DNA of 64,000 nucleotides from a virus: the UHGV virus genome UHGV-1375844. One strand, given 5' to 3'. Below, one piece after another: positions 6,937 to 41,049 of the stretch. The position numbers and the translations under genes were made by a program. The number at the start of each line of letters is the position of its first letter. Within the stretch, counting starts at the first letter, position 1. The notes beneath the pieces were generated by a model that searched no databases, was not told the DNA's origin, and saw only the letters and a program-made list of their open reading frames with translations.

Positions 6937-6990
6937 CCTGCTTCCGTATAAATAATAATAAGTAACTTAGTATTTATATACAGAAGCAGG
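6937..6990. repeat. long inverted repeat H1 (18-20 bp arms)
   Basis: CCTGCTTCCGTATAAATA ... TATTTATATACAGAAGCAGG; loop carries a motif-A-like palindrome; near-identical copy at 40995..41049. Confidence 0.7.
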
Positions 6991-7006
6991 TTATAAAATC
7001 CTTTAT

Positions 7007-7417
7007 CTATTTTTCGATAACTCTTTGTTCAACTTCTTGCATCTGCTTTTCAGTGAGACTAGAAATGTGTTGATTCAGCAACAGATTGCGGTAGAAACTT
7101 TTTTGAGCCTCCGATAAATCCTGTCGCTTATCAATGTTTCTCAAAGCATTGCCGTAACTCTCGCTGATCGCATCACCATTGAATGCCTCAATAATGGTTT
7201 TCACATTCATAGCCAAGACGCCAAAGATAAAACAACCAGTGTTGTATACCCAGTCTACAACAAACCCTTTGGCGTACAAGAAAGGGGTTAAAATGTGAAG
7301 AATAACCCAAAGCAAAGCGCCAATTATTATTCCAAAAGCAGTTCTAAGCGGATAGCCCAAAAACAGAATATCTATTGCCCGATTTAAATTCCGACTAAAG
7401 AAATCATGATCTGGCAT
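7007..7417 (-). CDS. membrane protein (136 aa), AT-rich gene
   Basis: Hydrophobic helices (ILFLGYPLRTAFGIIIGALLWVILHILTPFLY); visibly AT-rich coding sequence. Confidence 0.5.
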   Translation of the reverse strand: MPDHDFFSRNLNRAIDILFLGYPLRTAFGIIIGALLWVILHILTPFLYAKGFVVDWVYNTGCFIFGVLAMNVKTIIEAFNGDAISESYGNALRNIDKRQDLSEAQKSFYRNLLLNQHISSLTEKQMQEVEQRVIEK

Positions 7418-8048
7418 CTAAAACCCCCTTTCCCAATTCTTCCCCTGGAATTTCTTCCGAGGCAGGGGTATTAAATATTTTACGCCTTCTGCCGCTTCCA
7501 CCATCATCGATCTTGTCGATATTATTTTCGATGAACTTTAAAAGCTGTATAGCCTCTGTACTATTGTTGCCGTAAAACCCTTTGGAAATACGATATGTCA
7601 GAACGCGCTCTTTCAGCTCAAGTAAAACAAAGACAACAATCCCGATAATAGTTACAATGGGGCTAAAGCCCCAAAAGTAACCCATTGAAGCACCAAGAAA
7701 AATCATCAGCACCGATAAAAACTTAACCTTAAGGAAGGTTTTTTTCTCATATAAAAGATAAAGCTCGGAAATAGTTTTCCTTTTCAAAAACTCTTGCTCT
7801 TTCTTTAAATTGTCCTCATGTTTTGCTTTTATCTCTTGTAATTTTATTCTGTACTCTTCTGATTTTATATAACTCAATGTATTACGATACAAGAAACTAC
7901 ATACCATACCTATCATTGAGCCAATAACAGAAATGACACCTTGGTTTGAAATTCCCAACAACCCCATAACCTTTCCAAAGATCACGGCGGCTATAATGGC
8001 TAACATTAGACCTACGAACCATCCGAAATGTCTATTCAGGAATTTCAT
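7404..8048 (-). CDS. membrane protein (214 aa), AT-rich gene
   Basis: N-terminal TM helices, lysine-rich coiled middle, second TM block; AT-rich; overlaps next gene by 14 nt. Confidence 0.5.
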   Translation of the reverse strand: MKFLNRHFGWFVGLMLAIIAAVIFGKVMGLLGISNQGVISVIGSMIGMVCSFLYRNTLSYIKSEEYRIKLQEIKAKHEDNLKKEQEFLKRKTISELYLLYEKKTFLKVKFLSVLMIFLGASMGYFWGFSPIVTIIGIVVFVLLELKERVLTYRISKGFYGNNSTEAIQLLKFIENNIDKIDDGGSGRRRKIFNTPASEEIPGEELGKGVLDARS

Positions 8049-8052
8049 TATA

Positions 8053-8412
8053 TTAGCCTTTCTTCATCAGCTCGCGCTTGATCTCGTCTGTGCGCATCGT
8101 GACGTCAGCAGCGGTGATCGCCTCGTTCAGTTTCACAATGTCCTCGATTTCCTGCGGCGACTTCTCTGCCAGATGGTAAATGGCTGCACGAATCACGTCA
8201 GAACGGGTGAACTTCTCAAAGCGAGGGATGAATTTCATCATCTCCAGCAGATCGAAGTATTCGTCCTCCAGCGACATGGTACGGCTCTTTATTTTCTCTT
8301 TCCCACGAGTCGGGCGGCCCTGTGGTCTGACTGGCTGGCGCAACGGCGTGCTGTTTTTGGCCGGAGCATCCGGTTCTTTGCGCTTGGCAAGGTCTCCCAT
8401 CTTCATGGACAT
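8053..8412 (-). CDS. ParG-like ribbon-helix-helix partition protein (putative centromere-binding)
   Basis: Basic disordered N-terminus then RHH-like segment (KSRTMSL / EDEYFDLLEMM / RSDVIRAAIYHLAE); immediately downstream of ParA-like gene. Confidence 0.5.
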   Translation of the reverse strand: MSMKMGDLAKRKEPDAPAKNSTPLRQPVRPQGRPTRGKEKIKSRTMSLEDEYFDLLEMMKFIPRFEKFTRSDVIRAAIYHLAEKSPQEIEDIVKLNEAITAADVTMRTDEIKRELMKKG

Positions 8413-9077
8413 TACTCTTCCTCCAGACTCAAGATATAATCAACAAACTGTTCAAACTCGGCTTCTGCCTTCTTGTCGCGTTCGGCGCCAGTCATTTCAA
8501 AGATAGAGCGACCAGCCTCTTCTGCATCATCGTAAACGTTACGGTTGTACAAATTGACCGGTGCAGCTTCGATACCAAACGTCTCAACGATTTCTTTGGC
8601 GGCCAGAATACGCGACACCTGGGAAGGTAGTGACGGGCACTGGTTGATAACGGCACGTATTTTCACCTTCTCGTTCACATTGCGTACATTGTCGATAATC
8701 GGGTCGATGTCGCGCAGCGATTTCAGGTCACGACGTTTAGGGCGCAGCGGTATGACGATAACATCAGCCATCAGCATAGCTTGTCGCTGGATTTCGGAGT
8801 CGAAGCCCCCTGCGTCTACAACCACGTAATCGAAGCGCCCCTGAAGCGATTTGAGATGCTTAACGACGTCTTCCTGAACGTAAGCGAAAGGAATGAGATC
8901 GAGATCTTCATTCTGTCGACGGTCTTCGCACCAGCTGGTAGTGGTGCGCTGGATGTCGATGTCGGTAACTTGGATTTTCTTTTTCTTTTTGACTTTCAGG
9001 CAAACCGCTATTTGCTGGGCAACGGTCGATTTACCCGGGCCACCCTTCGTGCCGCCAACCACAATGATCCTAGTCAT
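8412..9077 (-). CDS. ParA/ParF-family partition ATPase
   Basis: Deviant Walker A GGTKGGPGKST, 221 aa. Confidence 0.8.
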   Translation of the reverse strand: MTRIIVVGGTKGGPGKSTVAQQIAVCLKVKKKKKIQVTDIDIQRTTTSWCEDRRQNEDLDLIPFAYVQEDVVKHLKSLQGRFDYVVVDAGGFDSEIQRQAMLMADVIVIPLRPKRRDLKSLRDIDPIIDNVRNVNEKVKIRAVINQCPSLPSQVSRILAAKEIVETFGIEAAPVNLYNRNVYDDAEEAGRSIFEMTGAERDKKAEAEFEQFVDYILSLEEE

Positions 9078-9111
9078 TGAATAGTTCCCTTTGCGTGAAT
9101 TATTGTCGTAT

Positions 9112-9130
9112 GAAACAACTTGTTTTCTTA
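9112..9130. promoter_or_regulatory. motif B copy upstream of ParA-like gene
   Basis: GAAACAACTTGTTTTCTTA followed by TATGCGATAT. Confidence 0.45.
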
Positions 9131-9272
9131 TATGCGATATAGCCTAAATGCCTACGGCTGCGGTGTAAAGGTGAAATGGTAGGTATTATCGAGATAGAGA
9201 GGGTCTTGAGATTAAGAATGAGAAGAGGTAAACAACTTTTGGCGAGAAGGCGGCACATAGCCGCCAGACTGT

Positions 9273-10022
9273 TTATTTAGTGTATAGGCCGACAGGTGCT
9301 CTTGAGCAACGAGAGATGATTAGAACAATGAACTTCTGTACATTGACCTGAACTTTGTTAGGCAGCCATGAACTGAGTTCGGGATCGAGCAGTAACCCAC
9401 GATTCCAAGGTAAAAAACCCGTGTTCTTGCCCATGCCGTATTCACCCAGCACGTCCTCGAACGTTTCTGTTTTGGCATTGTATATACGCACATCGCCGGT
9501 ACGCATGAGAGGGCCAGCCCAGATCTTAGCGCCAGGAATGGTTTGTTTATCGTCGCAGACTAAATGCTCGTACCAATGAAGAAGGAAAAGATAGGTACGG
9601 TGACACAATCCTCGCTGACGAAGCGCTCTGACGGTTTCGACCCCTGCTACCTGGTAACAGTCAATCTCGTTGCCGTCTTCAATAAAACTATATCCACGCA
9701 GAGCTATCCTGCCGGCGATCGTGTTTTTGCTTTCGTCCAGCAGTCCGGACTGGAGCGCCTCTTTGATGATCTCTTCTTCAGGGGCATCTTCATCAGCTCG
9801 ATCTAAGATAAATTCACTCAGGTCGCCCTGGTCGTGCGCGCCGACTCGCTCCATAGAGACATACAGGCAAATGTCATCTTCTGGCTCGATGATTTCAATT
9901 TCTGAGATTTTATAGAGGGAGGCTTCGTTGATGAGAAAGCCAAAACGAGCAACACGAGTCTCCCCTTGATGAGGAAACTCGCTTAGATCTTTTGAATATG
10001 CGGTATCTAGTGTAGGAGCCAT
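9273..10022 (-). CDS. hypothetical protein (249 aa)
   Basis: Long ORF; no recognisable motif. Confidence 0.5.
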   Translation of the reverse strand: MAPTLDTAYSKDLSEFPHQGETRVARFGFLINEASLYKISEIEIIEPEDDICLYVSMERVGAHDQGDLSEFILDRADEDAPEEEIIKEALQSGLLDESKNTIAGRIALRGYSFIEDGNEIDCYQVAGVETVRALRQRGLCHRTYLFLLHWYEHLVCDDKQTIPGAKIWAGPLMRTGDVRIYNAKTETFEDVLGEYGMGKNTGFLPWNRGLLLDPELSSWLPNKVQVNVQKFIVLIISRCSRAPVGLYTK

Positions 10023-10390
10023 CTTGTAGCAGAGTCATCAGCCTTAACCGTACTGACAATGCTACCATGATTACGTAAGAAGCGGCGAATAGAATGTTCA
10101 ATAACCTCCGAAAAAGCCTCGATAAAACGAGACAGCTCAGGGTACTGTTTGGCTGGCTTCACTACAAAACGAACACGACCATTCAGGTAAATTGCTTCAG
10201 CCAACGGTTTCACGCTTGCACCGGCGCGCTCGACATCGTCTTTAAAGGTAACGATGAAGCGTGAGTCTTCAGGTTCAATAGCGTCGTTATTGAGCTTACG
10301 TACTTCGAGCTTGTGCTGATGCAGCACATGAGTCTCGATAATACTCGTGCAATCGCGAATAGTTTGTATAGAACGTTTCTCGTTCAGCAT
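10007..10390 (-). CDS. hypothetical protein (127 aa)
   Basis: ORF overlapping downstream gene by 16 nt. Confidence 0.45.
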   Translation of the reverse strand: MLNEKRSIQTIRDCTSIIETHVLHQHKLEVRKLNNDAIEPEDSRFIVTFKDDVERAGASVKPLAEAIYLNGRVRFVVKPAKQYPELSRFIEAFSEVIEHSIRRFLRNHGSIVSTVKADDSATRWLLH

Positions 10391-10576
10391 GTGTCCACCT
10401 TAGCCGTTAACACAAGTGTCATTGCGGCACCCCTTCCGGGGTTAAAGGCTACGAGTATGCGTAGCTTGTATGTGTCCCACTTACGTGGATGCCTAATAAA
10501 TCTACATCAAATTGCTAAATGGTTCAACATGAGGTTGCGTGAACAGGCGTGTATACGGGTGAAGATGCCATCTTTA

Positions 10577-10618
10577 GGATAAAAGGTAAATTGGAGGCGC
10601 CACATAATTTCTGGCGCC
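10577..10618 (-). terminator. intrinsic terminator after lysis cassette
   Basis: GGCGCC-loop-GGCGCC stem followed on the minus strand by CCTTTTAT. Confidence 0.45.
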
Positions 10619-10632
10619 CATAAATCACCAAC

Positions 10633-10860
10633 TCAGCTCCGGTGCTCCCACTTACACAACCTTTCACCTATCGTATTGTGGATAAGCAGCTGTCGCTCTG
10701 TTTCCTCGGTCATAAAATCCTCTCTACTCACATAGATAGGATTTGCGGCATCGCAGAATTGTACGCCCAAGGTCTGGGGTTTAATCACGCATCCACTTAT
10801 CGCGAAGCTCGCGATGAATGGCAGAAGCATCCTTAGCCCTGACTTCATTAATCGTTTCAT
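10633..10860 (-). CDS. outer-membrane lipoprotein, o-spanin-like
   Basis: Signal peptide with lipobox (FAISGC); 5' end embedded out of frame in the i-spanin gene. Confidence 0.55.
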   Translation of the reverse strand: MKRLMKSGLRMLLPFIASFAISGCVIKPQTLGVQFCDAANPIYVSREDFMTEETERQLLIHNTIGERLCKWEHRS

Positions 10861-11032
10861 TTTTCACATCCACTGTGTTCTGAAGCCGTTTCCTGTCGTC
10901 TTGCCGCGCCTTTTCTTCCATTGCTTGCCGCGCCGCACGACCACCCATCGTATAGGCGCCTGCAAGCACTAAAAGAACGGCAGCCGCGGTAATCAGAGCA
11001 ATCTTTAGCTTCGAAAATAGGCTGCCGAACAT
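10781..11032 (-). CDS. i-spanin-like protein
   Basis: ORF trimmed to MFGSLFSKLKIALITAAAVLLVLAGAY (N-terminal TM) then charged coiled region. Confidence 0.5.
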   Translation of the reverse strand: MFGSLFSKLKIALITAAAVLLVLAGAYTMGGRAARQAMEEKARQDDRKRLQNTVDVKNETINEVRAKDASAIHRELRDKWMRD

Positions 11033-11033
11033 A

Positions 11034-11726
11034 TCAGACGATTCCTTTCTGATGCTTTCTGACCTGCGACCAGGCAATGAAGCCGGCCACGACGATAGTT
11101 GCGATCCCGAAGACGATGCGGATCGTGTCACCGCTGGTAATGTGGCCCTGTGCCTTGTCCATTGCCACCGATACCTGTGGCATGACATCGGCCAGCTGCG
11201 CCAGGCCAATACCTGCCGTAACGGTCGCACCGGCAGTCTCTTTGGTAACGGGAACAGCTTTTACAGTCTTTACCGGTTTGACAATGCCGGCACGTCGCAG
11301 ACCTTCTTCGATAAGCTCGGATGCATACCAGGTATTTGGTGTTTTCAGCGGACCTCGACCATTTTCGTGTCTGATGATCGCCTCTACCAGCGGTCTTAGG
11401 GTCTCGTAGTCATGTAAATCGATCACCATGTCCGGCGTGACACCAACAGCTTTGGCCACCTCATTCACGTAAGCCACAGTGTTGTTCTCATGTGGAGGCG
11501 CCCAGCGCTCAATAACTTCGCGGATCGTGTCGATGCTTGAGCCGTCTTTGGCTCGACGTTTGTCATGGTAGGTGATGAGCGTAACTGCCAATGCGCGAAT
11601 CCCCCATACGGGATCTTTGAAAGTGCAGAAGCGCGGTTCTGAAGGGTTGTCGACTAAGCCCTGCCACGGCGAACCTTTATCAAGATTGCCAGGGTTGTTG
11701 TTGCGAATACCTCTTGGAGTTTTCAT
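11034..11726 (-). CDS. putative cell-wall hydrolase / endolysin (by position), C-terminal TM helix
   Basis: 230 aa between holin-like gene and spanins; RNNNPGN motif near N-terminus; catalytic family not identified. Confidence 0.4.
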   Translation of the reverse strand: MKTPRGIRNNNPGNLDKGSPWQGLVDNPSEPRFCTFKDPVWGIRALAVTLITYHDKRRAKDGSSIDTIREVIERWAPPHENNTVAYVNEVAKAVGVTPDMVIDLHDYETLRPLVEAIIRHENGRGPLKTPNTWYASELIEEGLRRAGIVKPVKTVKAVPVTKETAGATVTAGIGLAQLADVMPQVSVAMDKAQGHITSGDTIRIVFGIATIVVAGFIAWSQVRKHQKGIV

Positions 11727-11737
11727 CCTTGATCTCC

Positions 11738-12073
11738 TTATTGCAGTCCATTTTTAACGCCGTAAGCGGCCAGCCCCAACAGCAGTACGGTAATCAGGAA
11801 CGACGTAATCTTTGAGACAATGCCGCCAAAAAACCCGCTGGAGATGGAGTCGAGCCGATTAAGAAGTTTGTCCAGATTTGAATGCTGGATGCTGTGTTGT
11901 GCCGGGGTCATATCGCCAAAGTAGGTCTTGAGCTGATCGTTAACTTCCTGACCAATCTCCTCGCGCAGTTCTTTGCCCAATTTGCCGACTACCTCGCGGG
12001 CAACAATCGCGGCAATGCGCTCTACCTGCTCTGGCGTTACGCCTGCCATCTCGTTCGACATTATTTCCTCCAT
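11738..12073 (-). CDS. putative holin / membrane protein
   Basis: 111 aa with C-terminal TM helix (ITSFLITVLLLGLAAYGV); first gene of presumed lysis cassette. Confidence 0.4.
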   Translation of the reverse strand: MEEIMSNEMAGVTPEQVERIAAIVAREVVGKLGKELREEIGQEVNDQLKTYFGDMTPAQHSIQHSNLDKLLNRLDSISSGFFGGIVSKITSFLITVLLLGLAAYGVKNGLQ

Positions 12074-12124
12074 GAAAAGTCAAATCGGGATGGCAGGGTT
12101 ATAACACATTAGCAAACAATTTTG

Positions 12125-12143
12125 TAGGTAAGCACTTACTTAT
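12125..12143. promoter_or_regulatory. motif A palindrome copy
   Basis: TAGGTAAGCACTTACTTAT between Gly-rich gene stop and holin-like gene. Confidence 0.45.
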
Positions 12144-12151
12144 TAATGCAT

Positions 12152-12976
12152 TTAAACACGGGTGCCATGAATTGTGCCAACCGTCACCCACGTTGGGGCA
12201 TTACCATTAACAGCAGCGCCACCAGCCCCACCTGCATACGGGGTGATATTCTTCCCCCCTCCAGACTGCGAAGCAGCTGCACCAGCGGAACCCAAGTCAC
12301 CACCTTTCCCGCCAACAGATGTTCCAAGGCTTGTGGAGGTATTCCCTGCACCTGGAGCCGTAAGCGAAGCATTGCTGCCGTTGCCACCGCCGCCGCTGGG
12401 GTAGGTTTTTGTACCACCGACGCCAAATGGTCGCCCGCCGCCGCCGCCTGAATAAGTTGGTTTATTATTACCAGCCCCAACAGCGCCGCCGCCTCCACCA
12501 CCGCCTCCAATAATGCCGTTATTTTGGATGCGCAGTTTGCTTCCGATGGCATTGGTGATCGCAGGACCGCCCGGCTTACCTTTGTTGGCATCGCCGTTTC
12601 CTCCACCGCCGCCATTTCCCCCACGGCCAAGCACCATTTGTCCCGAGTTAATCACAAGCAAGATATAAGCGCAGCTGGCAAGCTCGCTTGTAAAATTGAG
12701 ACAGGGCGCACTGGCAGAACTCGACACAATGGTACCGGTGATGTTGACTCTGATGGCGTTGTCCTTCACGCCTAAAGACTTAATCTGATTGACTAGAGTA
12801 GACCAGGAATAGTTGTTGTTCGCTGAAACATTGATGACCTGCTCTCTGGACTTGCCTACCAGGGTTTTCATCCAGAAAGGGGCGCCAACCCGTACAGATC
12901 TGCCGGCAGCTGACATCCATCGTTGCCCAGTCTCACTTACTGCGGAGGAGCCAACCCATCCGGAGTTGATGGTCAT
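12152..12976 (-). CDS. glycine-rich putative tail fibre / receptor-binding protein
   Basis: Start trimmed to MTINSGWVGSSAVS; N-terminal ~45 aa paralogous to 14410..14967; C-terminus is poly-Gly rich. Confidence 0.5.
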   Translation of the reverse strand: MTINSGWVGSSAVSETGQRWMSAAGRSVRVGAPFWMKTLVGKSREQVINVSANNNYSWSTLVNQIKSLGVKDNAIRVNITGTIVSSSASAPCLNFTSELASCAYILLVINSGQMVLGRGGNGGGGGNGDANKGKPGGPAITNAIGSKLRIQNNGIIGGGGGGGGAVGAGNNKPTYSGGGGGRPFGVGGTKTYPSGGGGNGSNASLTAPGAGNTSTSLGTSVGGKGGDLGSAGAAASQSGGGKNITPYAGGAGGAAVNGNAPTWVTVGTIHGTRV

Positions 12977-13227
12977 TTTCTCATCTCCTTGAGTTCCATA
13001 ACCTCTTTTTCGACGCTTTAACAGCTTCGACCATAATCCCAATGATACCGTTACATTTCAGACGAAGGCGTTCTTCTCCTGAATGGTCGTTTTTATCGGC
13101 TGTAACCAGCTCTGGTTGCAACTTTTACATCTCGGGCGGTCAAGCTACCCGCCATCTTGCCCGACATCATTTCCTTAATGAAAGTCAGTTCAGATGGCAG
13201 GTAATACTATACTTTTTTTACCGGTCT

Positions 13228-14967: not shown

Positions 14968-17900
14968 TATCTGTTCTCCTTGATTTCACGGATTTCGTCA
15001 CGCAGCTCTTTCACCGCTTCGACCAGCAGTCCAATGACGCCGTTATAGTTCAGACGCAGACGCTCTTCCCCGGATTGGTCATTTTTATCAACCGTTACCA
15101 GTTCTGGCTGTACCTTCTGAACATCCTGAGCGATCAGGCCACCAGACTGCTCGTATCGATCATGTACCTGAATCTCATACAGAACCCCTTCAATCTGCCC
15201 CAGCTTGTCGAGTGCGCTCTCGATTTTGCGGATATTCCGCTTACTTCTACGGTCAGAACGGATATATACGTCGTTGAAGCTACCATTACCGCCACATACC
15301 CAAGTGCCATCGTTTTGCAGATATGCCTGGGCATCCGTACCGTTGGCCGTCCGTGAGTTGTTGATCATGTAAAAACCAAACTGGCTGTTACCCAGACCGC
15401 CGACGAAAAACTTACGATCGGCATGATCTTGTCTCAACAACGCTTGGGCCGAGCTGGTTGACACGGCATTCCGTCCAAAAATAACGTTCTGATCACGCAT
15501 GTTAATCCACGAGCCAGAGCCGCTATTGATGGCGAAGCGACCTGCGTAGACCCACGCACTTGAAGTAATGTCTCCTGACACAGAAAGGGGCTTATTGCTT
15601 TGCAACGTCCCGTTGACGAATCGGAACACATGAGCGCTATTGGCGTAGACATCCAGTACGCCATCCCCATTTTGCTTAAACCCGGTATCGTTATCTCCCA
15701 GAACAATAGAGTTCCCACCTAATCCATTCGTTACGCCTAAACCGAGGCTGCCGGCAATAGTTGCGCCACCAGCGATATCAAGGCCGTTAGCCATCGACGC
15801 ACGACCAGAAGTGTTGTTAATGGTCAGCGGTCGAAGGCCGTTCCATCCACCAAACTTGTCGCCTGATGCCGTTAAAAGGAAATAGGTGCTGCTGCCATCG
15901 TTTCGGATGAAGAAGCCAAAGTTACCGTAAGCAGCTCGCAGAGCATTGGCGCTTAATGAGGTGATCTCATTTCTTGCACGAACACCATATCCAGTGTTGA
16001 TAATGAGTTCCTCTTGCGCGTCAGTATTCCCTGTCGCCCAACGGATAGTTCCACCCTGAACCGTCTCGTGCCAGATTGTGTCGCTACTTCCCCCGCGGTA
16101 TTTGCGGAGATATTTCTTACCCCCTGTCGTGCCTCCACATAAAGCGGTGGCCATGTACGTGCCCTGGGCGCCGCCATCCTGATTAATGGTTCCGGTAACT
16201 GCTCCACCGCCTGTAGGGAGTGCCCCAACCTCAGCGGCGCTCGGTTTGTTAGCCGTGGTGTAGATCTGCGCCCAACCAGACCAATTGGCGTCAGTGGTAT
16301 CACGACGAGAGCGGATGTAAGCTGGGGCATGGCCACCGCTGGTGCCACTCCAGCCGAGTAACAACTCGCCTTCGCCTGCAGCAGACCCTCCTTTAAAATG
16401 AAGAACGTTGCCGTAAGTTGTTGGATAGCCGTTGTTGTAGGCTTCATACATCTGGATACCCGGCATGGCCCCCTGCGTACTTCCGGCCAGCGCGGTAACG
16501 CGACCGCGAGATACCAGAGTAGGGATGCTGATATTCGCGGTACCATCAAAAGCGACATTGTTGATCGATCTTGCCGTCTGCAATTTGCTCGCTGAGACCG
16601 CATTAGCACCTGAAGCAAGAGCGCCAATATCGGCAGGCGTTGGCTTATTACGGGTGTTATATAAGCGACGCCAGCCTGGTCCATAGCCGTCACCATTATT
16701 TACGTAAATAAACTCGGCGTTAGTTACCCCACCATGACCTGTCGTCGTTGGTGTGGTAATGCGGATCGTGTAGTTACCTGAGTTTCCATTGCTGAAAACT
16801 TCAATAACTGAACCAGAGAGATCAATCCTGCCGCATCCAGTGTCGTCAATGTAGTTATTGCTGGCGTAAGACCATGAGCAACGCGCGATCCAACATTTAT
16901 ACCCAAAAGCACCTTGTTCATTAAGCCAGGTAACAAACTGAGCTGTGGTAAAGGCCGCACCACTGCCACTATTCAGCCAACCACTAACTGCTGCCGCAGC
17001 ATTGATGTTTGCCGGGCTAATGTTAATGTCAGAAGAACCGTCGAAGTTTACACCTGCGATTTTACGTGCGGTTTGTAGCTTAGTTGCAGTCGCTGCGTTG
17101 CCTGTCGTGCTTTGATTTCCCTGGGTGTTAACACCAGGCAAGTTGATATCGGCGGAACCGTCAAAATTCACCCCACCAATTTTTCGGGGCGTCCTGAGCT
17201 TGCTGGCCGTACCCGCATTCCCTGATGTTGACTGGTTCCCCTCGGCATTCACACCCGGAAGATTGATGTCCTGGCTGCCATCGAACAGCACCCCACCAAT
17301 ACGACGTCCCGTCTGGAGTACCGTCGCAGTACTCGCATTGCCCACCAGTGAGCCTGTAATAGCACCATTGATGTCTGAAAGTACTCGATGATATACCGTT
17401 CCCTCTACGGCGCCTTCAGGCAACGAGTCAACCGATTCGATCACTTCCAGCGATTCAACCGCGGCGCCGGAGAATTGCAGGTTCACAATTAACTTTTGAG
17501 CGCCCGCGCCCACGCGAAGGTAGATGTCGTAATTTTCTTCGTCGGTATTAACGGTGGCCACGCTATTTACAGCGGAGTCCTGCGTTAAATAGGCAACAGC
17601 ATTGAGACCTTTGGGATCGCCCCCCGCTGTGCGAAGAACAATGTCAGCCATCGCAGCCTGGCCTGGGCTATCGGTATCATAGCCAGCGCCACCGATCACT
17701 TCGATGTAGACAGTGCTGGTCGCTTGCGGCATACGCGCACGCGAGACTTTTACCCACTTGGGCGTATCAGAGGTCAAGTCCAGTTCGGCGGACGTACCTT
17801 TCCATTTCACGCTGGCGATACTGGACTGCGCATTCTGCGCATATTCGTATGCCTTGTCCTCAGACGCTTTCGCTTTCGTCTGGGATGCTTTGGCCTCAGC

Positions 17901-31395: not shown

Positions 31396-32181
31396 TTAAC
31401 TGGCAGCAGTCACCGTTACAGATTTGGTGGCCTTCTTGCCGCCGCTATTAGCAGTAAACGAAATGTTGACTGCGCCTTCTGCAACACCGCGAACCAGTCC
31501 GGACTGGTCTACGGTTGCTTTTTGTGGATCTTCTGATGCCCAGACACCGGTTTTGTCTGCAACATCATCTGGTTGAACTTGCGCCGAAAGTTGAACCGTA
31601 GCCCCTACTTTGCAGGTCGGTGAACCCGGAGAGATGGTTACGGTTTTAACCGGCTTTGGGCCGCTCATTTTCCCCAGAACGCCGTTGTCATCCGGATATG
31701 CGGTGAACTGAACGGAGAAAACGCGAACATCATCAGACTGGTAGGTCATGGTGAAGTTGCCTGCGGTTGCGGCTTTCGGGATTGTCAGAACGTAGTCGGT
31801 CGTATCCTGCGGGGTCAGAATCAACTCTTTAGCAACGTCGATCAGGTTGACGCCCTGGGCAGAGGTAATGGTCACAGAATTGTCTTCTTCGCTCATGGTT
31901 GAACCAGGCATAAGATCGACCATGTTCTGCAACACGGACTCGGCCAGCGGCGCAGTGATGGTAATGTTACGACCCTGTACCAATTCTGAGATGGTGGTCT
32001 GCCCCAACTGGTCGACGGTCACTTTGAGGGTCTCTGTCGCAACTTCGACCTGAACGCCGCCTTTGGTGTAACCCAGATCCACGCCACCAAACGACACTTT
32101 ACAAGCGCCAAGTTTGATGTTTTTTACATGGGTATTGGACATTGTTGGAAAACTCCTTTTTCCGTTAATCGGCACCGTCAT
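31396..32181 (-). CDS. V: major tail protein with C-terminal Ig-like domain, lambda V-like
   Basis: 261 aa; C-terminal Big_2-like segment (TVTISPGSPTCKVGATVQLSAQVQP...). Confidence 0.75.
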   Translation of the reverse strand: MTVPINGKRSFPTMSNTHVKNIKLGACKVSFGGVDLGYTKGGVQVEVATETLKVTVDQLGQTTISELVQGRNITITAPLAESVLQNMVDLMPGSTMSEEDNSVTITSAQGVNLIDVAKELILTPQDTTDYVLTIPKAATAGNFTMTYQSDDVRVFSVQFTAYPDDNGVLGKMSGPKPVKTVTISPGSPTCKVGATVQLSAQVQPDDVADKTGVWASEDPQKATVDQSGLVRGVAEGAVNISFTANSGGKKATKSVTVTAAS

Positions 32182-34771: not shown

Positions 34772-34810
34772 AATTTCTCACTTATGGGCGGCCTGGCCGC
34801 CCATGTGTTG

Positions 34811-35473: not shown

Positions 35474-35483
35474 TCTTCTGCTC

Positions 35484-35515
35484 CTACAAAAAGGGTGGGC
35501 GTATAGCCCACCCTT
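35484..35515 (-). terminator. intrinsic terminator downstream of major capsid gene
   Basis: AAGGGTGGGC-loop-GCCCACCCTT stem followed on minus strand by TTTTTG. Confidence 0.6.
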
Positions 35516-35520
35516 AACAG

Positions 35521-35539
35521 TAGATAACTACTTACCTAC
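35521..35539. promoter_or_regulatory. motif A palindrome copy (variant)
   Basis: TAGATAACTACTTACCTAC adjacent to the capsid terminator. Confidence 0.4.
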
Positions 35540-35547
35540 TACACTGA

Positions 35548-36429
35548 TCAAATTTTGACGTTTTTCAGTGCCGCGATAGCTTTATCGTGCTTATTCGCCA
35601 GCGAGCAGTACCATTTAACACGGGTACGAACTGCGTCTTTGTTCTGAACAGTGCCGATATTTTCCACAACGATACCGGCATTCTCGCCACCGTACAGGCC
35701 AGTCACACCGTTTTCTTCAGACAGATGCAGACAGTAAATGTCAGCCGCATCATTCTCTTCAGTTTTAGGAATGAAGTCGTTGATGATGAACGGAATACCG
35801 TTGTGGCACAGCATCGGGCGACCGAAGTTTTCCAGCATAATTTCGGACGGACCGACATTTACGGTACGCAGCAGTGCTCGGTATGCACGCAGGTGCTCAG
35901 AACGCATCATGATGCAGTCAGCGCCCAGATCCTTCACTGCGTCGACCAGCTCATCGAACATAGAGAAGGTCATGGAAGCCTTCGCAATGTCAATTTTCTG
36001 ATCGTCGTGCATCAGCTTAGGAATGCCGTCGAACGCTTTGGTGTTCTCGGTAGAGTTACCAAGAATCAGGTTACGACGGAAAGCACGCGCCAGGCCTTTT
36101 ACCTTCTGACGAACCTGAATTGCGAGCTGGCTGTTGGTGTCAGACATAGTGGTCGCCAGGAATTTGTCGACGTCTACGTCGCCTGCCAGAATACGCAGCT
36201 TCGCCACATGCTCGGTGAAGGTTGCCGCGCCTTCGGAGATGGTGTCGTTCACATCAATGAAGGTCGCTTCGCTCAGGGTAGCTTCACGGTTGTAAAGGTA
36301 CGCTTTGGAGTCGATCTTCATGAACGGCAGAATGGCGAACAGATCATCGCGGTCAATAATAGTTTCGATCACGCCCTGTTCGAGTTCGTTGTTAGACAGC
36401 TTTTCAGCTTCTTCACGCAGTAATGGCAT
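35548..36429 (-). CDS. major capsid protein
   Basis: 293 aa; position after scaffold and before strong terminator. Confidence 0.65.
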   Translation of the reverse strand: MPLLREEAEKLSNNELEQGVIETIIDRDDLFAILPFMKIDSKAYLYNREATLSEATFIDVNDTISEGAATFTEHVAKLRILAGDVDVDKFLATTMSDTNSQLAIQVRQKVKGLARAFRRNLILGNSTENTKAFDGIPKLMHDDQKIDIAKASMTFSMFDELVDAVKDLGADCIMMRSEHLRAYRALLRTVNVGPSEIMLENFGRPMLCHNGIPFIINDFIPKTEENDAADIYCLHLSEENGVTGLYGGENAGIVVENIGTVQNKDAVRTRVKWYCSLANKHDKAIAALKNVKI

Positions 36430-36454
36430 CTTTCATTTCCCTATGATTAAGATG

Positions 36455-37351
36455 TTACTTGAGTCCGATTTTCCCCAGACCGGAAGTCAACTTATCCATT
36501 GTCGACCTGTTCTTCGGCTGGTTAACTTTATGGGTCGGTTTGCTGTTTGAACCGGCACCCTGCTTGGCTTCGCTGCGCATCAATGCGTCAGCCTCCGGAT
36601 CAGCACGCAGAATGCGCTCAATCGCGGATTCGAACGGTAACGGCTTACCTTCGCCGTCAACCAGAACTGCACGTTCCTTCTGACCGGCCGGCTTGTCATA
36701 GCCAACAACGCTACCGTCTTCACCCACTTCAAAATGAGAGCCGTAGATAACGCGTGCTTTTGCCGGTGTCATCAGAACCTTTTCACGCAGGAAGGTAGAG
36801 CCGCTGAATGACGCGCCGACAGTCATTTCGACCAGCTGGGCTTTTAAGGCGGCGTTTTCACTCTCCAAAGCGGAGAATCGTTCGTCACGCTGTGCCAGCT
36901 CATGCTGATGCGCTTCGATCATCTGCTTTTTGACAGCGTCGAACTCGCCTCGGCGTTCCAGTTCAGCTTGCTCCGCCTCACGGCGTGCATTTTCTGCGGC
37001 TTGTTCAGCTTCCAGAAGCTGACGAGCACGCGCCGGGTCAATGTCACCGTACTGAGCAAGCTGATCGGATAAAGAGCGCTCTTTTTCCTTGCGCTTCATA
37101 TTCTCTTTCAGCAGGTCAGCGCCAGCTTTCTTAGACTTACGCAGTTCGGCCAGCAACTCTTCAGGAGTCAAACCAGCTAAATCGTCGTCTTCACCCTTCG
37201 GCTGCTCTTTTTGCTCACCCTGTTTGCCTGGGTCTTGAGTACCCTGCTCGTTATCACCAGCAGGAGCACCAGCACCTGCGCCGCCACGCTCATGCGATTC
37301 GGCTACATCCATCAGGCCACGACGGGCCATAAGCATTTGCCACAGATTCAT
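36455..37351 (-). CDS. scaffolding protein
   Basis: 298 aa, highly charged coiled-coil-like, between portal and capsid genes. Confidence 0.55.
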   Translation of the reverse strand: MNLWQMLMARRGLMDVAESHERGGAGAGAPAGDNEQGTQDPGKQGEQKEQPKGEDDDLAGLTPEELLAELRKSKKAGADLLKENMKRKEKERSLSDQLAQYGDIDPARARQLLEAEQAAENARREAEQAELERRGEFDAVKKQMIEAHQHELAQRDERFSALESENAALKAQLVEMTVGASFSGSTFLREKVLMTPAKARVIYGSHFEVGEDGSVVGYDKPAGQKERAVLVDGEGKPLPFESAIERILRADPEADALMRSEAKQGAGSNSKPTHKVNQPKNRSTMDKLTSGLGKIGLK

Positions 37352-37372
37352 AGAAATTCCTTTTGTTACTTA

Positions 37373-38947
37373 TCACTCGGTCTCTTGAGTAGATGAGTCC
37401 CCATTCCCTCGGGGTTGATCTTGCCCGCTCTCTTGGGCTGCATCTCGATCATAAGTAAGTACTGACTTATTTTCAAGGGTGTTTAGATCATTTTTTAGAG
37501 GAAATTTCAAGAGGTCTTTATCAAATTCCTTTTTCATCGCTTCGGAAATGTTAGGGAAGACTTTCTCGATAAGCATTTCCATCTGGTGCCGACGAACAGA
37601 ATCTGGCGCCTGCAGCAATGCGAGTTTCTCAGCAACAGCAAATTCGTCAGTCAGCCCGCGAATATCGAAACTCTCCGGGTAAGCAATTAAAGAGTGGTCT
37701 TCGTCCAGTTCGACACCCATCCACTTCGCGGCCAGCATCATCATTTGGCGCTCGGCTCTTTCGAGACGTTCAGCCTTTGTCACCAGCAGACTGTTAACTC
37801 TCTGGAAGTCGTACATTTTGGCTGCGCCTGATGAGTTATCGATACCCTGCGCGTTATCCTGCTTGGTTCGCTCTCCTGCAACACCAACGGAGTGGTAGAT
37901 CTCATTAATCACGGTCTTAATCGTGGTAATGATCATCTGCGCTTGTTTTGGGTCAGGCGAAAGGTAAAACGGCTGGTTCCCGCCCTCGGAATCGTAGGTG
38001 AAAACACGCTTCGTCCCCATCTCCAGCACCTTGTCGTGATTTTCATCGCCCGGCAGTAGAGACTGAACAGGGATAGCAAGCTGGCTAAATGTCTGATCCT
38101 GAATGATGGCGTCCAGGTTCGAGAGATAGTTAGCGACGGCCCGATCGAGATAGGCAATATCATCAATGAGTGACGGGCTGAAATAAGGTGATTCACTTTC
38201 CCCGATGCAATCTACCGGGAATACCGGTACCGCGCCCAACTTGTGCTCACCGTAGTCCTCCAGCACGACTTTTGCCTGCCTGCGACCTGCGCCACCGGAA
38301 CTCTTTTTCACCTCTTCACGGAAGAGATACCATTCATTTTGTGTCCATAGACGATAACGCTGGTATTCCTGACCAGTTGAGGTGAAAGGGTCCGTATCGT
38401 CACGCGCAATTTCTACGATCAGCGCCCACAGCATATTGCCATCTTCGTCCCAGGCCACATCAAGCAGCTGCTGCGGCGAAATCCAGTAGGCATAGGCTCG
38501 CGCCCCCTTCTGTTTCTCGTCAGCAACGGACTCAACGTCACCGTTCATTGTGCTATCGACCACAACCCAGATGCGGCCGTAAATAGACGACTGAAGATCG
38601 ATTGCCGCCATGAACGCATCAATGGAAGCATTCTGCCGTGTGGCTCGTTTCCAGAAATTGCGGATCTGCTCGGGCGCCTCTTCGATATTGCGATGAATAT
38701 CCTCTTTGAAGAGATATTTGTTGATCAGGTTTACCACTTCGCGAGTGTGGTTAAAGCGATACGCTCGCTCAAGGCGCTCCTTGAACTCCTGATCACCCTC
38801 TTTGAAGTAACGAAAGATATTTTCGCTGAACCAGGCTCGCCCGCCAGCGTAAGTGCTGGCGAGAAAATCCCAATGTTCTTTTTTCTTCTCATATTCGGGG
38901 TGGCGCCGGGCCACCAGATCTTTGATTTGCTTATCAGTCAATTCCAT
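37373..38947 (-). CDS. portal protein
   Basis: 524 aa directly downstream of terminase large subunit. Confidence 0.7.
   Translation of the reverse strand: MELTDKQIKDLVARRHPEYEKKKEHWDFLASTYAGGRAWFSENIFRYFKEGDQEFKERLERAYRFNHTREVVNLINKYLFKEDIHRNIEEAPEQIRNFWKRATRQNASIDAFMAAIDLQSSIYGRIWVVVDSTMNGDVESVADEKQKGARAYAYWISPQQLLDVAWDEDGNMLWALIVEIARDDTDPFTSTGQEYQRYRLWTQNEWYLFREEVKKSSGGAGRRQAKVVLEDYGEHKLGAVPVFPVDCIGESESPYFSPSLIDDIAYLDRAVANYLSNLDAIIQDQTFSQLAIPVQSLLPGDENHDKVLEMGTKRVFTYDSEGGNQPFYLSPDPKQAQMIITTIKTVINEIYHSVGVAGERTKQDNAQGIDNSSGAAKMYDFQRVNSLLVTKAERLERAERQMMMLAAKWMGVELDEDHSLIAYPESFDIRGLTDEFAVAEKLALLQAPDSVRRHQMEMLIEKVFPNISEAMKKEFDKDLLKFPLKNDLNTLENKSVLTYDRDAAQESGQDQPRGNGDSSTQETE
37451..37470. promoter_or_regulatory. 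motif A palindrome copy inside portal 3' coding region
   Basis: ATAAGTAAGTACTGACTTAT about 100 nt upstream of scaffold start. Confidence 0.4.
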
Positions 38948-38963
38948 TTGCTTTACTCTCCTG

Positions 38964-38983
38964 ATAGGTAAGCACTTACTTAT
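38964..38983. promoter_or_regulatory. motif A palindrome copy
   Basis: ATAGGTAAGCACTTACTTAT spans terminase large subunit stop; AGGAGA RBS and portal ATG follow. Confidence 0.5.
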
Positions 38984-40242
38984 CTTGATCCGCCAAGAAT
39001 AACACGATTTTTAACCGGATACCTACGATGAACTGGATAACCTAATGCATCCGCGCTGTGCTCAATGCCACCACTCTTATCCATATCCCGTGAGCCAGGT
39101 TTATAAATTACTTTTTCAAGCGAATCGATAAGGTGTTTGCATTTCGGGTCGATATAAAGCCGCGTTTCGCCAGATGCGCTTAACAGCATACGGTTTACGG
39201 CATTCACACGATCCGCTATTGGCGGGTGCTTCTTCGGAAAATCAACCCGTAGAAAACCCTTTTCCTTAAAAATGTCTACGTCTGACTCACCACGAGCGTG
39301 CTGACGATACGCGCCGGCAGGGTCGGGGAAAATGGTCACATGTGATTTCCATCGCCAGTAACGGCGCTCCAGCTCATCACACACTTCTGCCGTGTTGGAT
39401 GAGAAAAGCACCAACTCGTCAACCGCCCACAACTCGCCATTTGGCTGTGGCTGGAGAATGACAGAAGACATCGGATCGATGTTGAAGTCCTGACCAACCC
39501 AGATCGGCAGCTTTGGATTGAACTGCAACGGCTTCACATGCACGCTTCGGTCGAAAGGATAGTAAACACGACCGGACATGTTTTCGAAGCTGGCCAGGTA
39601 CTCCTGAGCGAACGACTTAGGGTCCATATCATTCTTCGCGGCTTCGATTTCAGCGGTCGGAACAAACGGAGAGTCAGCAGTAACAAACTGCCAGCTCTTC
39701 CACTGGCCTTTACGCTGTAGCTCTTTGTTCTGGCCGATCGTCCACAGCTTATGGAACTCAGAGAAGCCTTTCGGCGTACCGATGATCAGCGCCCCGCCCC
39801 GGGTGGATGACAACGTCGGTCGAAGAACCTTATACCAGGTGTCCGGCTTCATATCCTGAAACTCGTCGAGTACCACGAAGTGAAGCGCAACACCACGGAG
39901 CGTATCGGGCTTATCGGCGCCTTTGAGCGCGATCTCAGAGCCGTTCTTCAGCACGATTGTCATCGTGGTATCGTTTTTCTTACGAATCCATTTCCGGGGT
40001 AAAACTTCCTGCAGGTCATCCCACAAAATCTGGCGTGCCATCTGATAAGTCGGCGCGACATACCAGACACGTTGTTTTTTCTCTTTGGCCGCGGCTCGGA
40101 TAATGGTGGAAATCGACAACCGGGATTTACCCCAGCGTCGACCCGCACATACCACCTTGAATCGATGTGGCGACTGGAAGACTTTCATCTGTCCAGAATG
40201 CAGCTGTACGAGACTCAGAGACGACGGGATGCTCATAATCAA
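38980..40242 (-). CDS. terminase large subunit
   Basis: Walker A CAGRRWGKS, Walker B VVLDEFQ, 420 aa. Confidence 0.85.
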   Translation of the reverse strand: MIMSIPSSLSLVQLHSGQMKVFQSPHRFKVVCAGRRWGKSRLSISTIIRAAAKEKKQRVWYVAPTYQMARQILWDDLQEVLPRKWIRKKNDTTMTIVLKNGSEIALKGADKPDTLRGVALHFVVLDEFQDMKPDTWYKVLRPTLSSTRGGALIIGTPKGFSEFHKLWTIGQNKELQRKGQWKSWQFVTADSPFVPTAEIEAAKNDMDPKSFAQEYLASFENMSGRVYYPFDRSVHVKPLQFNPKLPIWVGQDFNIDPMSSVILQPQPNGELWAVDELVLFSSNTAEVCDELERRYWRWKSHVTIFPDPAGAYRQHARGESDVDIFKEKGFLRVDFPKKHPPIADRVNAVNRMLLSASGETRLYIDPKCKHLIDSLEKVIYKPGSRDMDKSGGIEHSADALGYPVHRRYPVKNRVILGGSR

Positions 40243-40880
40243 ACACTCCCATCACTTTCATCGTCCGACGCGTCAGAATCGATTTCAGCTTCGCTCAGCG
40301 CTTCCTCTTCCAGCGACTCAAGCAGTTCATCATCGATCAACTCAGGCTCATCGTCTTCCTTACGCAGCTGCGCAACCTGTGAAGGTGTAAGTTCGCCAAA
40401 CACCAGGTTCGGAATTTCATCTTCCTCATTTTCGGCGCGATCCATGCCGAGCGCTTTCGAAGAGATTTCGAAGCACTTGGCCAGTGTGCCGCTGGCTCGC
40501 TGGAGACTTTTAAGGTCATCTTCTATAGCTGCGAGAGGTCTGCCATCCTTTTTGGCAGTGGCAACTTCGTGCATGACCATGCGCCCGAGTGCAAACGCCC
40601 AATCGTCGTAGCGAGTACGCCGCTCTTCAATTTTGTCTGCTCTCGCTTTGGCACGAAGCTCCGCATCGGATTTGAGCGATTCGCGAACCATCTTTCCAAC
40701 AGAGTCAGCGCCCTTCTCTAATCCACGCTTTTTGAAATGTCTGGAGAGCGTTTCACGACGAATGCCGTACTCTTCCTCCAGTTTTGAGAGCGTATACTCG
40801 CCTGAAGTCCACTTCGCTTCGGCTTCTGCCCACTCAGCTGGCGTCAGGCGAGTTTTGGTCTCGTCTTTTTCTACCGTCAT
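40239..40880 (-). CDS. terminase small subunit
   Basis: 213 aa with N-terminal HTH-like segment and acidic C-terminus; overlaps large-subunit start by 4 nt. Confidence 0.6.
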   Translation of the reverse strand: MTVEKDETKTRLTPAEWAEAEAKWTSGEYTLSKLEEEYGIRRETLSRHFKKRGLEKGADSVGKMVRESLKSDAELRAKARADKIEERRTRYDDWAFALGRMVMHEVATAKKDGRPLAAIEDDLKSLQRASGTLAKCFEISSKALGMDRAENEEDEIPNLVFGELTPSQVAQLRKEDDEPELIDDELLESLEEEALSEAEIDSDASDDESDGSV

Positions 40881-40920
40881 AGATCCCTCTAAAACACGCA
40901 GAGCGCATCCTTGCGCCCTC

Positions 40921-40965
40921 TAAACAATTTGTTTAAATCTCTGTCTAACCAATTTGTTTTCTGGG
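40921..40965. promoter_or_regulatory. motif B copies (two half-elements) upstream of terminase small subunit
   Basis: TAAACAATTTGTTTAAA and AACCAATTTGTTTTCTGG. Confidence 0.45.
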
Positions 40966-40994
40966 TGGTTTATCAAAACTTGAGAGTTGCAGAA

Positions 40995-41049
40995 CCTGCT
41001 TCCGTATATAATTAATAAGTGACTTAATATTTATTTATACGGAAGCAGG
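40995..41049. repeat. long inverted repeat H2 (about 20 bp arms)
   Basis: CCTGCTTCCGTATATAA ... TTATACGGAAGCAGG; arms nearly identical to H1 at 6937..6990. Confidence 0.7.

Follow-up and report, generated by a model that had tools for sequence, protein, structure and literature searches.

A triplicated hairpin at putative transcription-unit borders of SSU5-type phage-plasmids

The sequence analysed here, a window of 64,000 nucleotides, belongs to an SSU5-type phage-plasmid with 99% identity to the Salmonella plasmid pSA20094620.2, and it contains two palindromic hairpins, H1 and H2, from a set of three unannotated elements that seem to delimit the main transcription units. SSU5 and pSA20094620.2, as complete replicons, each carry exactly three copies, the third one (H3) being located about 570 nt past the right end of the window. 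The initial annotation had described the repeats as a pair; both members do exist, but the family element is a triplet with one copy outside the window. We put forward tentatively, judging it somewhat short of an even chance, that the three copies constitute a transcript-level boundary hairpin, in which H1 and H3 would be intrinsic terminators and H2 a non-terminating copy, possibly processed by RNase III.

Structure and genomic position of the hairpins

The two sites in the window comprise the following features:

6092-6817, minus strand: homologue of gene 038 (241 aa), with which the DnaB-helicase/primase operon begins
6912-6920, minus strand: outer motif TTCCCAGAC, 3' half of a nested inverted repeat (GTCTGGGAG...CTCCCAGAC in relatives)
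6930-6936, minus strand: U-tract after H1, TCTTTTC on the coding strand
6937-6990, minus strand: H1 palindrome, arms 6937-6950 and 6977-6990, A+T spacer 6951-6976 (26 nt)
7007-7417, minus strand: last gene of the unit upstream of H1 (136 aa, phrog_17322), stop codon 16 nt before H1
38980-40242: terL, which follows terS
40239-40880, minus strand: terS (213 aa, phrog_867, DNA-binding)
40900-40919, minus strand: terS leader, small terminator-like hairpin plus GUGUUUUAG, located between H2 and the start codon
40982-41067, minus strand: predicted extended H2 duplex, UGGGAGU...ACUCUCA outer stem plus 21 continuous pairs (-43.6 kcal/mol, z -8.6)
40995-41049, minus strand: H2 palindrome, arms 40995-41008 and 41036-41049, A+T spacer 41009-41035 (27 nt)
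41075-41341, minus strand: last gene of the ParB-like/ABC-ATPase unit (88 aa, phrog_900), stop codon 25 nt before H2

H1 and H2 are near-identical inverted repeats, as had been recognised in the initial annotation. Their arms (CCTGCTTCCGTATA / TATAC(G/A)GAAGCAGG) form 14 perfect pairs in H2 and 14 pairs in H1, including one mismatch that corresponds to a G.U pair on the minus strand, and the spacers between them have an A+T content of 88-89%. An arm length of 18-20 bp, as given previously, requires imperfect A/T pairs or, at H2, seven extra flanking pairs including G.U; the real arms measure 14 bp. Copies of the arms, exact or with one mismatch, were found in the 64-kb window only at H1 and H2, and when the same 64 kb were scanned generically for A+T-rich spacers bounded by arms of 9 bp or more, H1 and H2 alone were recovered. 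The loop had also been said to resemble motif A, which is present in 12 copies; they do have ATAAGTnACTTAT in common, but the likeness is weak (15/20 positions).

The folding energies suggested as a check in the initial annotation yielded stable, GC-containing stem-loops on the coding strand at both sites, with z-scores of -5 to -9.7 for the H1 and H2 folds; in a comparison with 200 shuffles the z-scores were -7 to -9.7 and none of the shuffles was as stable. The minus-strand RNA of H1 folded at -23.6 kcal/mol (z -7.4), with 15 GC-containing pairs plus weak A/U pairs and no extended lower stem, and that of H2 at -34.8 to -43.6 kcal/mol, with about 28 predicted pairs and one small internal loop. 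H3 of SSU5 was predicted as nested stems of 11+5+8+8. Folds computed with DNA parameters were significant for both strands. Outside the stems, CCCAGAC-like motifs were found on the flanks of the element. At H2 the outer motif GTCTGGGAG occupies positions 41062-41070, while at H1 the 5' partner of TTCCCAGAC is missing from the window's mosaic upstream flank; GTCTGGGAG was not enriched in the window (13 found vs 11 expected).

The genes flanking H1 and H2 are all encoded on the minus strand. H2 had been placed directly upstream of terS and H1 upstream of the replication block, and both placements stand: the edge of H2 lies 114 nt from the terS ATG (40880), and that of H1 119 nt from the ATG of the first gene in the DnaB/primase block (6817). 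No recognisable domain was detected in this gene 038 homologue, nor any structural relative by sequence. H3 lies 28 nt after a stop codon, so that at all three sites the hairpin is found 16-28 nt past a stop codon and 114-120 nt ahead of the next ATG, a spacing that was constant in almost every one of some 220 related loci. H1 was located 116-120 nt upstream of the gene 038 homologue in 78 of 80 of them, H2 preceded terS by 95-117 nt in 73 of 74, and H3 was present in 57/69. The ParB/ABC-ATPase unit ends at the H2 boundary, where terS and the virion genes start; at H1, a virion/lysis/parA unit gives way to gene 038, DnaB and primase; H3 marks the end of a nucleotide-metabolism unit. The gene flank upstream of H1 varies among relatives, and homology to SSU5 stops at 6992, the mosaic breakpoint falling exactly at the H1 edge. 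The small hairpin in the terS leader is also kept in relatives, with a compensatory change.

Within E. coli genomes, 855 of the 857 places with the element corresponded to plasmids of about 100-114 kb and two were chromosomal, and about 5% of the complete E. coli genomes carried it. Phage-plasmids of the SSU5 type occur commonly in Salmonella, E. coli, Klebsiella, and Enterobacter, and plasmids of Yersinia pestis bear the same terS. A search of the window against Rfam 15 gave no match, the hairpin reaching only sub-threshold similarity to generic long-hairpin (microRNA precursor) families. Scanning viral contigs with a 14-mer from one arm returned chance matches only, a gapped-pattern search added one further chance locus (L349), and megablast of two distant loci (L222 and L224) against plasmids produced no match. 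In the literature we found no paper on the SSU5 termini, on these repeats or on RNA 3' ends at them, and no account of the regulation of SSU5-type phage-plasmids.

Strand specificity, divergence and concerted change

Taking a T-tract as at least five T among the first eight nucleotides past the stem, such a tract followed H1 on the sense strand in 73 of 78 loci (antisense, 11/78) and H3 in 50 of 57 (antisense, 0/57), whereas at H2 it was found in 0/73 on the sense strand and 1/73 on the antisense strand. In pSA20094620.2, the closest relative, H3 has no T-tract. The initial annotation, which examined the plus strand alone although the genes lie on the minus strand, had reported that neither repeat is followed by a U-tract and that they are not standard intrinsic terminators; both statements stand for H2, on either strand, whereas H1 is a hairpin followed by TCTTTTC on the coding strand, for which termination should not have been dismissed. 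Fold stability was less uniform: the sense-strand fold was more stable at H1 (26/30), the H2 core showed no bias, and at H3 the antisense fold was the more stable. Strand-specific tolerance of G.U pairs, which looked like strong proof of an RNA role at H1 and H2 (25 vs 4 positions), was dropped given the few positions, its reversal at H3 and a mixed energy comparison. A likeness of the arms (TATGGGAGCA, TATAGGAGCC) to T7-type promoter cores was likewise discarded, the annotation containing no gene for a single-subunit RNA polymerase. No sigma-70 promoter was called inside the hairpin by a scan of the coding strand, and manual checks of hexamers were poor.

Distant relatives show the same architecture, with complementary arms common to all copies within a genome. 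In Providencia pPROV236-2 and in loci L222 and L224 the arms are different (GCCGTGCTCCCATA / TATGGGAGCACGGC and similar), departing from those of SSU5 by complementary substitutions and indels, and the spacers measure 51 to 118 nt, the longest being the A+T spacer of the Providencia H1 equivalent. The Providencia H3 lies 45 nt ahead of the next ATG and has no U-tract. To judge from the complementary arms of these relatives, it is the pairing that is conserved. Within the clade, exchanges of T-A to G-C and of C-G to T-A were seen in the arms, but covariation was not above that of shuffles (95.5% of positions paired vs 95.3%).

In the clade of Klebsiella pCAVP366-109, one arm has decayed at two sites, canonical GC hairpins with T-tracts are found at the same positions, and the H2 copy of the clade has a T-tract, which argues that those positions need terminators. 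One arm and the A+T tract stay conserved in this clade without the partner arm. Among relatives in general, the two arms differ in conservation, one being nearly invariant and the other degenerate. The spacer core ATAAGTnACTTAT is absent from the H3 spacer, and it recurs in Acinetobacter relatives, where an A+T palindrome with this core lies upstream of terS. The lone arm with its A+T tract and the recurrence of ATAAGTnACTTAT point to a putative sequence-specific recognition at the DNA level.

The copies also change in concert. H1 and H2 were identical at 55/55 positions in several genomes, some spacer variants were private to one genome yet common to its three copies, and in different lineages the hairpin was flipped between its outer inverted repeats.

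Proposed role and alternative explanations

As a transcript-level boundary hairpin, the element would act when RNA polymerase crosses it on the coding strand and the 14-bp arms pair in the transcript. At H1 and H3 the U-tract directly after the stem suggests an intrinsic terminator, by which the next operon would be insulated. H2, which lacks a U-tract and is predicted to form a duplex of about 28 bp, would probably not terminate; it may instead cause the polymerase to pause, or fold into a structure for RNase III-type processing or 3'-end protection at the junction of the upstream message with the packaging operon. RNase III processing, for which some 20 bp or more of double-stranded RNA would be expected, is plausible for H2 only, in view of that duplex and the missing U-tract. 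Gene conversion between copies would maintain their near-identity, possibly reinforced by a factor binding the conserved stem or spacer. The hairpin is an atypical terminator, 55 nt long with a weakly paired 27-nt A/U top, and a simple terminator scan does not call it. Moreover, H2 is the best conserved copy and lacks a U-tract in all 73 loci, so termination is not the whole function.

What the rest of the function might be is addressed by a second proposal, which we consider rather unlikely: the conserved arm and the A+T spacer with its motif-A-like core could form a DNA or hairpin site from which, through a phage-specific factor, packaging or lytic replication would begin at as many as three places, or a site for a dedicated antiterminator or regulator switching the three boundaries simultaneously, terminator-like behaviour being then only half of the function. 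If the conserved sequence is read by a phage factor, it would offer an initial entry point to the lysis/plasmid switch, the packaging or the replication of the SSU5-type family.

Among the alternatives to the boundary hairpin, it seems unlikely that all copies are pure cleavage or stabiliser hairpins for RNase III or a similar enzyme, splitting polycistronic transcripts with the U-tracts being incidental. The long, near-continuous duplexes predicted at H2 and at the nested stems of SSU5 H3 would suit such a role, as would the intercistronic position and common sequence of the copies, which recall the T7 sites, and the Providencia H3, close to the next ATG and without U-tract; but it leaves the strand-specific U-tract at H1 and H3 unexplained, the window's H1 has no extended lower stem, and no Rfam family was matched.

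A use of the sites as lytic origins or single-strand initiation sites appears slightly less probable still. The A+T spacer would unwind between the GC-containing arms, as a cruciform or single-stranded DNA hairpin, and serve the phage DnaB/primase/DnaE replisome at up to three places. Such a use would fit the architecture, which is like that of palindromic origins, the position of H1 directly upstream of the 038-DnaB-primase operon, the 118-nt A+T spacer of the Providencia H1 equivalent, the CCCAGAC-like flanking motifs, the significance of the DNA-parameter folds on both strands and the inconsistent transcript-strand bias. Nevertheless, an unwinding element would be expected to exceed the 23-29 nt of these spacers, no enrichment of the flanking motif was seen across the window, no initiator was identified (gene 038 having no recognisable domain), and neither the strand-specific U-tract nor the constant distance from the stop codon would be explained.

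We give a comparably low probability to the element being a double-stranded DNA platform for a phage regulator (e.g., a motif-A-recognising or ParB-like protein), an operator or insulator for downstream promoters whose hairpin is a by-product of the palindrome. Terminator palindromes doubling as transcription-factor sites have been described in a preprint, and the ATAAGTnACTTAT core is like that of the 12-copy motif A and kept as far as the Acinetobacter relatives; the asymmetry between an invariant and a degenerate arm, the survival of one arm with the A+T tract in the pCAVP366 clade and the constant distance to the next ATG agree with this explanation. Against it, the arm-to-arm spacing ranges from 23 to 118 nt, which a fixed dimer could not accommodate, the 51-118 nt spacers of the Providencia type arguing against fixed-geometry dimer binding; the H3 spacer has no core motif, the spacing of half-sites is unlike that of motif A, and no binding protein was identified.

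That H2 is a pac site or terminal-repeat boundary, at which the terminase would bind the arms and cut the A+T spacer, H1 and H3 being secondary or vestigial, is equally doubtful. The immediate upstream vicinity of terS is the classic position of a packaging site, and H2 lies 114 nt from this gene; the GenBank record of SSU5 begins and ends within the H2 spacer (...ACTTATTA/AATATATACGG), one arm is nearly invariant, and the Acinetobacter A+T palindrome with the same core is upstream of terS too. TerL belongs to the Terminase_6N/3 type and not to the lambda cos type; its relatives are headful and terminal-repeat packagers, with which extra sites would be tolerable. Yet each genome carries three near-identical copies, H2 alone being close to terS, some genomes have an H1 that is identical to H2, and other virion-derived records start elsewhere than H2. 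Two draft contigs (L124 and L137) also end within H1, and the termini of the SSU5 record may therefore have arisen where an assembly stopped at a repeat; the repeats explain assembly breaks at these sites, probably including that of the SSU5 reference record. The U-tracts would also be left unexplained. The H2 spacer is where the records of both SSU5 and Cyrano are broken, but a cos site deduced from these record ends was rejected, as the Cyrano record is plasmid pLF82, re-oriented and re-annotated alongside SSU5, and offers no independent evidence for cos.

Finally, a functionless recombination relic, a selfish or passively copied linker at module junctions, would account for the mosaic breakpoint at the H1 edge, the flipping between outer inverted repeats and the homogenised copies, but is very improbable, as the element has stayed at the same three syntenic sites, with compensatory changes in the arms, from Salmonella through to Providencia, and is never found elsewhere in the phage-plasmid genome, with only 2/857 E. 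coli places being chromosomal.

Whichever role applies, the positions of the hairpins provide testable operon boundaries, candidate safe insertion points and an aid to phage-plasmid annotation. The H1 border is at the same time a point of mosaic exchange, relatives differing there in their cargo genes; some SSU5-type phage-plasmids have been reported to carry resistance genes.

Comparison with known systems

The inverted arms flanking an A+T spacer, and the presence of several copies per genome with one beside replication genes, are shared with palindromic origins, such as oriS/oriL of herpes simplex, and with single-strand initiation hairpins, from which the element differs in having no known initiator, a short spacer and strand-specific U-tracts. 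As in lambda cosN-cosB and P1 pac, H2 is just upstream of terS, partly symmetric around an A+T centre and cut in the SSU5 record; unlike them, the hairpin occurs in three copies per genome and accompanies a TerL that is not lambda-like.

BIME/RIP elements of E. coli consist of two inverted REP units around an IHF site. These and ERIC repeats resemble the hairpin in their inverted GC-containing units around an A+T-rich centre that may bind protein, and in their location in 3' untranslated regions of operons, whereas the hairpin resides on phage-plasmids (855/857 E. coli places), is unrelated in sequence and has no IHF consensus. A host REP/BIME/ERIC repeat was rejected, with three copies per plasmid and two chromosomal places out of 857.

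The RNase III R sites of T7 and T3 and lambda sib/tI likewise form a set of similar intercistronic hairpins in one phage genome, with long imperfect duplexes (predicted ones in our case) that may serve either as terminators or as processing sites, according to read-through. The hairpin has neither sequence nor Rfam similarity to them, is present in three copies only, and lacks the extended lower stem at H1.

Rho-independent terminators have a short loop, unlike this 55-nt hairpin with its 27-nt A/U-rich top, whose sequence is also conserved and triplicated and whose H2 copy lacks a U-tract. The resemblance lies in the hairpin followed by a U-tract on the coding strand at H1 and H3, in the placement 16-28 nt past a stop codon at a co-directional operon end, ahead of the next promoter region, as in promoter-coupled terminators, and in the canonical terminators that relatives have at these sites. 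Transcription punctuation by the hairpin would not be a new kind of mechanism.

A palindrome in three copies

GC skew and annotation place genes on the minus strand from position 1 to about 44,000, so "upstream" and "downstream" are read here on that strand. The palindromes H1 and H2 were found at the coordinates assigned in the initial annotation, and their structure is far beyond chance, as they were the sole returns of a generic palindrome scan of the 64 kb and gave fold z-scores of -7 to -9.7. Their arms (CCTGCTTCCGTATA and its complement), described at first as 18–20 bp long, comprise only 14 pairs, all perfect in H2 and including in H1 one mismatch that corresponds to a G.U pair on the minus strand. 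These arms surround spacers of 27 nt (H2) and 26 nt (H1), with 88–89% A+T. No further exact or near-exact arm copies were detected in the window outside H1 and H2. The two near-identical repeats do exist, but they belong to a triplet, as alignment located a third copy, H3, ~570 nt past the window's right end (position 64,000).

Copies of the H element
6937-6990, minus strand: H1 palindrome
40995-41049, minus strand: H2 palindrome
89571-89626 in pSA20094620.2 and 78304-78360 in SSU5: H3, located 28 nt downstream of a Dam-like methyltransferase gene, with the next gene starting 116-119 nt further on

The Salmonella enterica plasmid pSA20094620.2, 99.2% identical to the window, presented copies at 31940, 65998 and 89571, and Salmonella phage SSU5 at about 0, 33.46 and 78.30 kb; this phage and related E. 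coli and Klebsiella phage-plasmids matched the H1 and H2 sites at 80-90% identity. Of 5,426 complete E. coli genomes, 260 carry the element, at a median of three places each. Membership of the REP, BIME or ERIC families was rejected, 855 of the 857 E. coli places being on plasmids of about 100-114 kb. The element was annotated at none of these 857 places, no Rfam family matched it, and our literature search found no paper describing these repeats. The H element is real, conserved and unannotated.

Operon boundaries, U-tracts and RNA folds

In the window, 16 nt separate H1 from the preceding stop codon (that of ORF 7007-7417) and 119 nt from the first ATG of the 038-DnaB-primase operon; the corresponding distances for H2 are 25 nt (ORF 41075-41341) and 114 nt (the terminase gene terS). 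This agrees with their original placement upstream of the replication block and of terS, respectively. Among IMG/VR relatives, H2 was found at 73 of 74 terS loci (95-117 nt upstream), H1 at 78 of 80 gene-038 loci (mostly 116-120 nt upstream) and H3 at 57 of 69 loci, ~30 nt past the Dam-like methylase gene. The sequence 5' of H1 is a mosaic that differs between relatives, and SSU5 homology ends exactly at 6992, the edge of H1. Right of this breakpoint (7007-8048), the genes upstream of H1 vary between relatives, which points to a hotspot of cargo exchange with the hairpin as its border.

The initial annotation, in which only the plus strand was read and thus no U-tract was seen, had considered that neither repeat was a standard intrinsic terminator. 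This holds for H2, with no U-tract on either strand, but H1 is directly followed by TCTTTTC on the coding strand. Defining a T-tract as at least 5 T within the first 8 nt after the element, we detected it after H1 on the coding strand of 73/78 loci (11/78 on the opposite strand) and after H3 in 50/57 (0/57), compared with 0/73 (1/73) after H2. The H3 of the closest relative, pSA20094620.2, also lacks a U-tract. An outer inverted repeat, GTCTGGGAG...CTCCCAGAC, encloses the hairpin; the predicted folds were of about 110 nt (-42.8 kcal/mol) for the sense RNA of SSU5 H3, an almost uninterrupted duplex of ~28 bp (-43.6 kcal/mol, z -8.6) for the window's H2, and the core hairpin only for its H1. The H2 core, together with its inner flanks, has flipped between the outer repeats from one lineage to another.

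Evolution of the element and other repeats in the window

Inside the SSU5 clade the arms are nearly constant; most changes are transitions preserving G.U, full pair exchanges (C-G to T-A, T-A to G-C) occur at a few arm pairs, and a formal covariation test gave 95.5%, not above the 95.3% of shuffles. Pairing is better supported across clades. Providencia pPROV236-2 (TerS 62% identical) carries the arms GCCGTGCTCCCATA / TATGGGAGCACGGC at four or more sites, and loci L222 and L224 have further arm variants. Relative to SSU5, all these arms show complementary substitutions and indels; their spacers are 51-118 nt long and their outer repeat is another one (CCGCAGTG/CACTGCGG). These complementary changes and long spacers argue that the conserved property is pairing, and not a double-stranded site of fixed geometry. 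Copies within a genome evolve in concert; H1 equals H2 at 55/55 positions in several genomes, and a private spacer variant is present in all three copies of one. In Klebsiella pCAVP366-109 and relatives (TerS 59%), two sites keep only the A+T tract and one arm (TATAGGAGCCAGGC), ordinary GC hairpin plus T-tract terminators adjoin these remnants, and the H2 copy has a T-tract.

Other repeats
Motif A (palindrome ATAAGTAAGTACTTACTTAT, 20 bp; at least 12 copies of about 20 nt): 3388, 6831, 12124, 13228, 19204, 25671, 32192, 37451, 38964, 44495, 58158, 63008
Motif B (TAAACAAnTTGTTT, often with TCTTGnTGG after it): 40921-40976; 49774-60621 (at least 9 copies); 9099-9140; 6036-6064

Most copies of motif A occupy short gaps that separate co-directional genes of the minus strand, usually 13-50 nt ahead of the following ATG; its plus-strand half ACTTACTTAT is nearly invariant and the other degenerate. 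A motif like it precedes terS in Aeromonas pVA7-1 (L360, about 1352-1370) and Acinetobacter pM164-3.1 (L361, about 826-845). Motif B, repeated in the accessory/regulatory region and with two copies between H2 and terS, has the look of an operator or promoter element used in common. In addition, three tandem repeats (53333-53425, spacing 29-31 nt, consensus about TCGGTAGCCTGGTGGTAAGAGGTGGGT), with a fourth copy 3.4 kb away at 49882-49914, resemble iterons and may be a site for replication or partition. The tail-fibre region contains a 109-nt direct repeat (13016-13124 and 15008-15116, 77% identity, 2 kb apart).

Possible roles of the element

Given where the copies lie, the strand specificity of the U-tracts and the canonical terminators that take the element's place in some relatives, we tentatively prefer a transcript-level boundary element as the best reading, with a probability somewhat short of even. 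H1 and H3 would be intrinsic terminators insulating the next operon, and H2 a copy without termination, possibly an RNase III-type or stabilising hairpin. Within the terS leader there are also copies of motif B and, immediately ahead of the gene, a small terminator-like hairpin that is conserved; therefore, the packaging operon may be regulated through read-through control. This hairpin (GAGCGCAAGGATGCGCTC, 40900-40919, minus strand) ends about 20 nt before the terS ATG, and a T-rich tail comes next (UGCGUGUUUUAG here, UGAGUGUUUUAG in SSU5). Relatives conserve the hairpin and show a compensatory change in it, GAGCACA/TGTGCTC; it could serve as an attenuator or as a terminator under read-through control.

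However, H2 is the best conserved copy and has no U-tract, the hairpin form is unusual for a terminator, the fold strand bias is uneven (towards the sense strand at H1 and the antisense strand at H3, absent from the H2 core), and one arm is nearly invariant and survives alone in the pCAVP366-109 clade. Moreover, the spacer core ATAAGTnACTTAT is similar to motif A (12 copies) and reappears in Acinetobacter relatives, both in an H-like palindrome and upstream of terS. These features leave room for DNA-level roles. One such role, less probable, would be a factor-binding platform; a recent preprint describes terminator palindromes doubling as transcription-factor sites. A lytic origin or single-strand initiation site fits in part: the architecture is compatible, and in Providencia a spacer of 118 nt adjoins the helicase operon. 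However, this role has no known initiator and leaves the U-tracts unexplained. A packaging (cos or pac) site would be another, less probable role: the SSU5 reference NC_018843 is linearised inside the H2 spacer (L002 1-20, L003 4960-5000; window about 41013), but draft contigs L124 and L137 terminate inside H1, assemblers evidently breaking at this repeat, the Cyrano record is not independent evidence, and there are three copies per genome. TerL, a Terminase_6N/3-type protein, shares ~26% identity with enzymes of the T5-like and Jersey-like kinds and is not lambda-like. A functionless relic is unlikely because the element is kept at syntenic sites.

In conclusion, the function of the element is probably ordinary and its form, triplicated and homogenised, unusual; among known systems, it would work most like an intrinsic terminator or a T7-type set of intercistronic hairpins.
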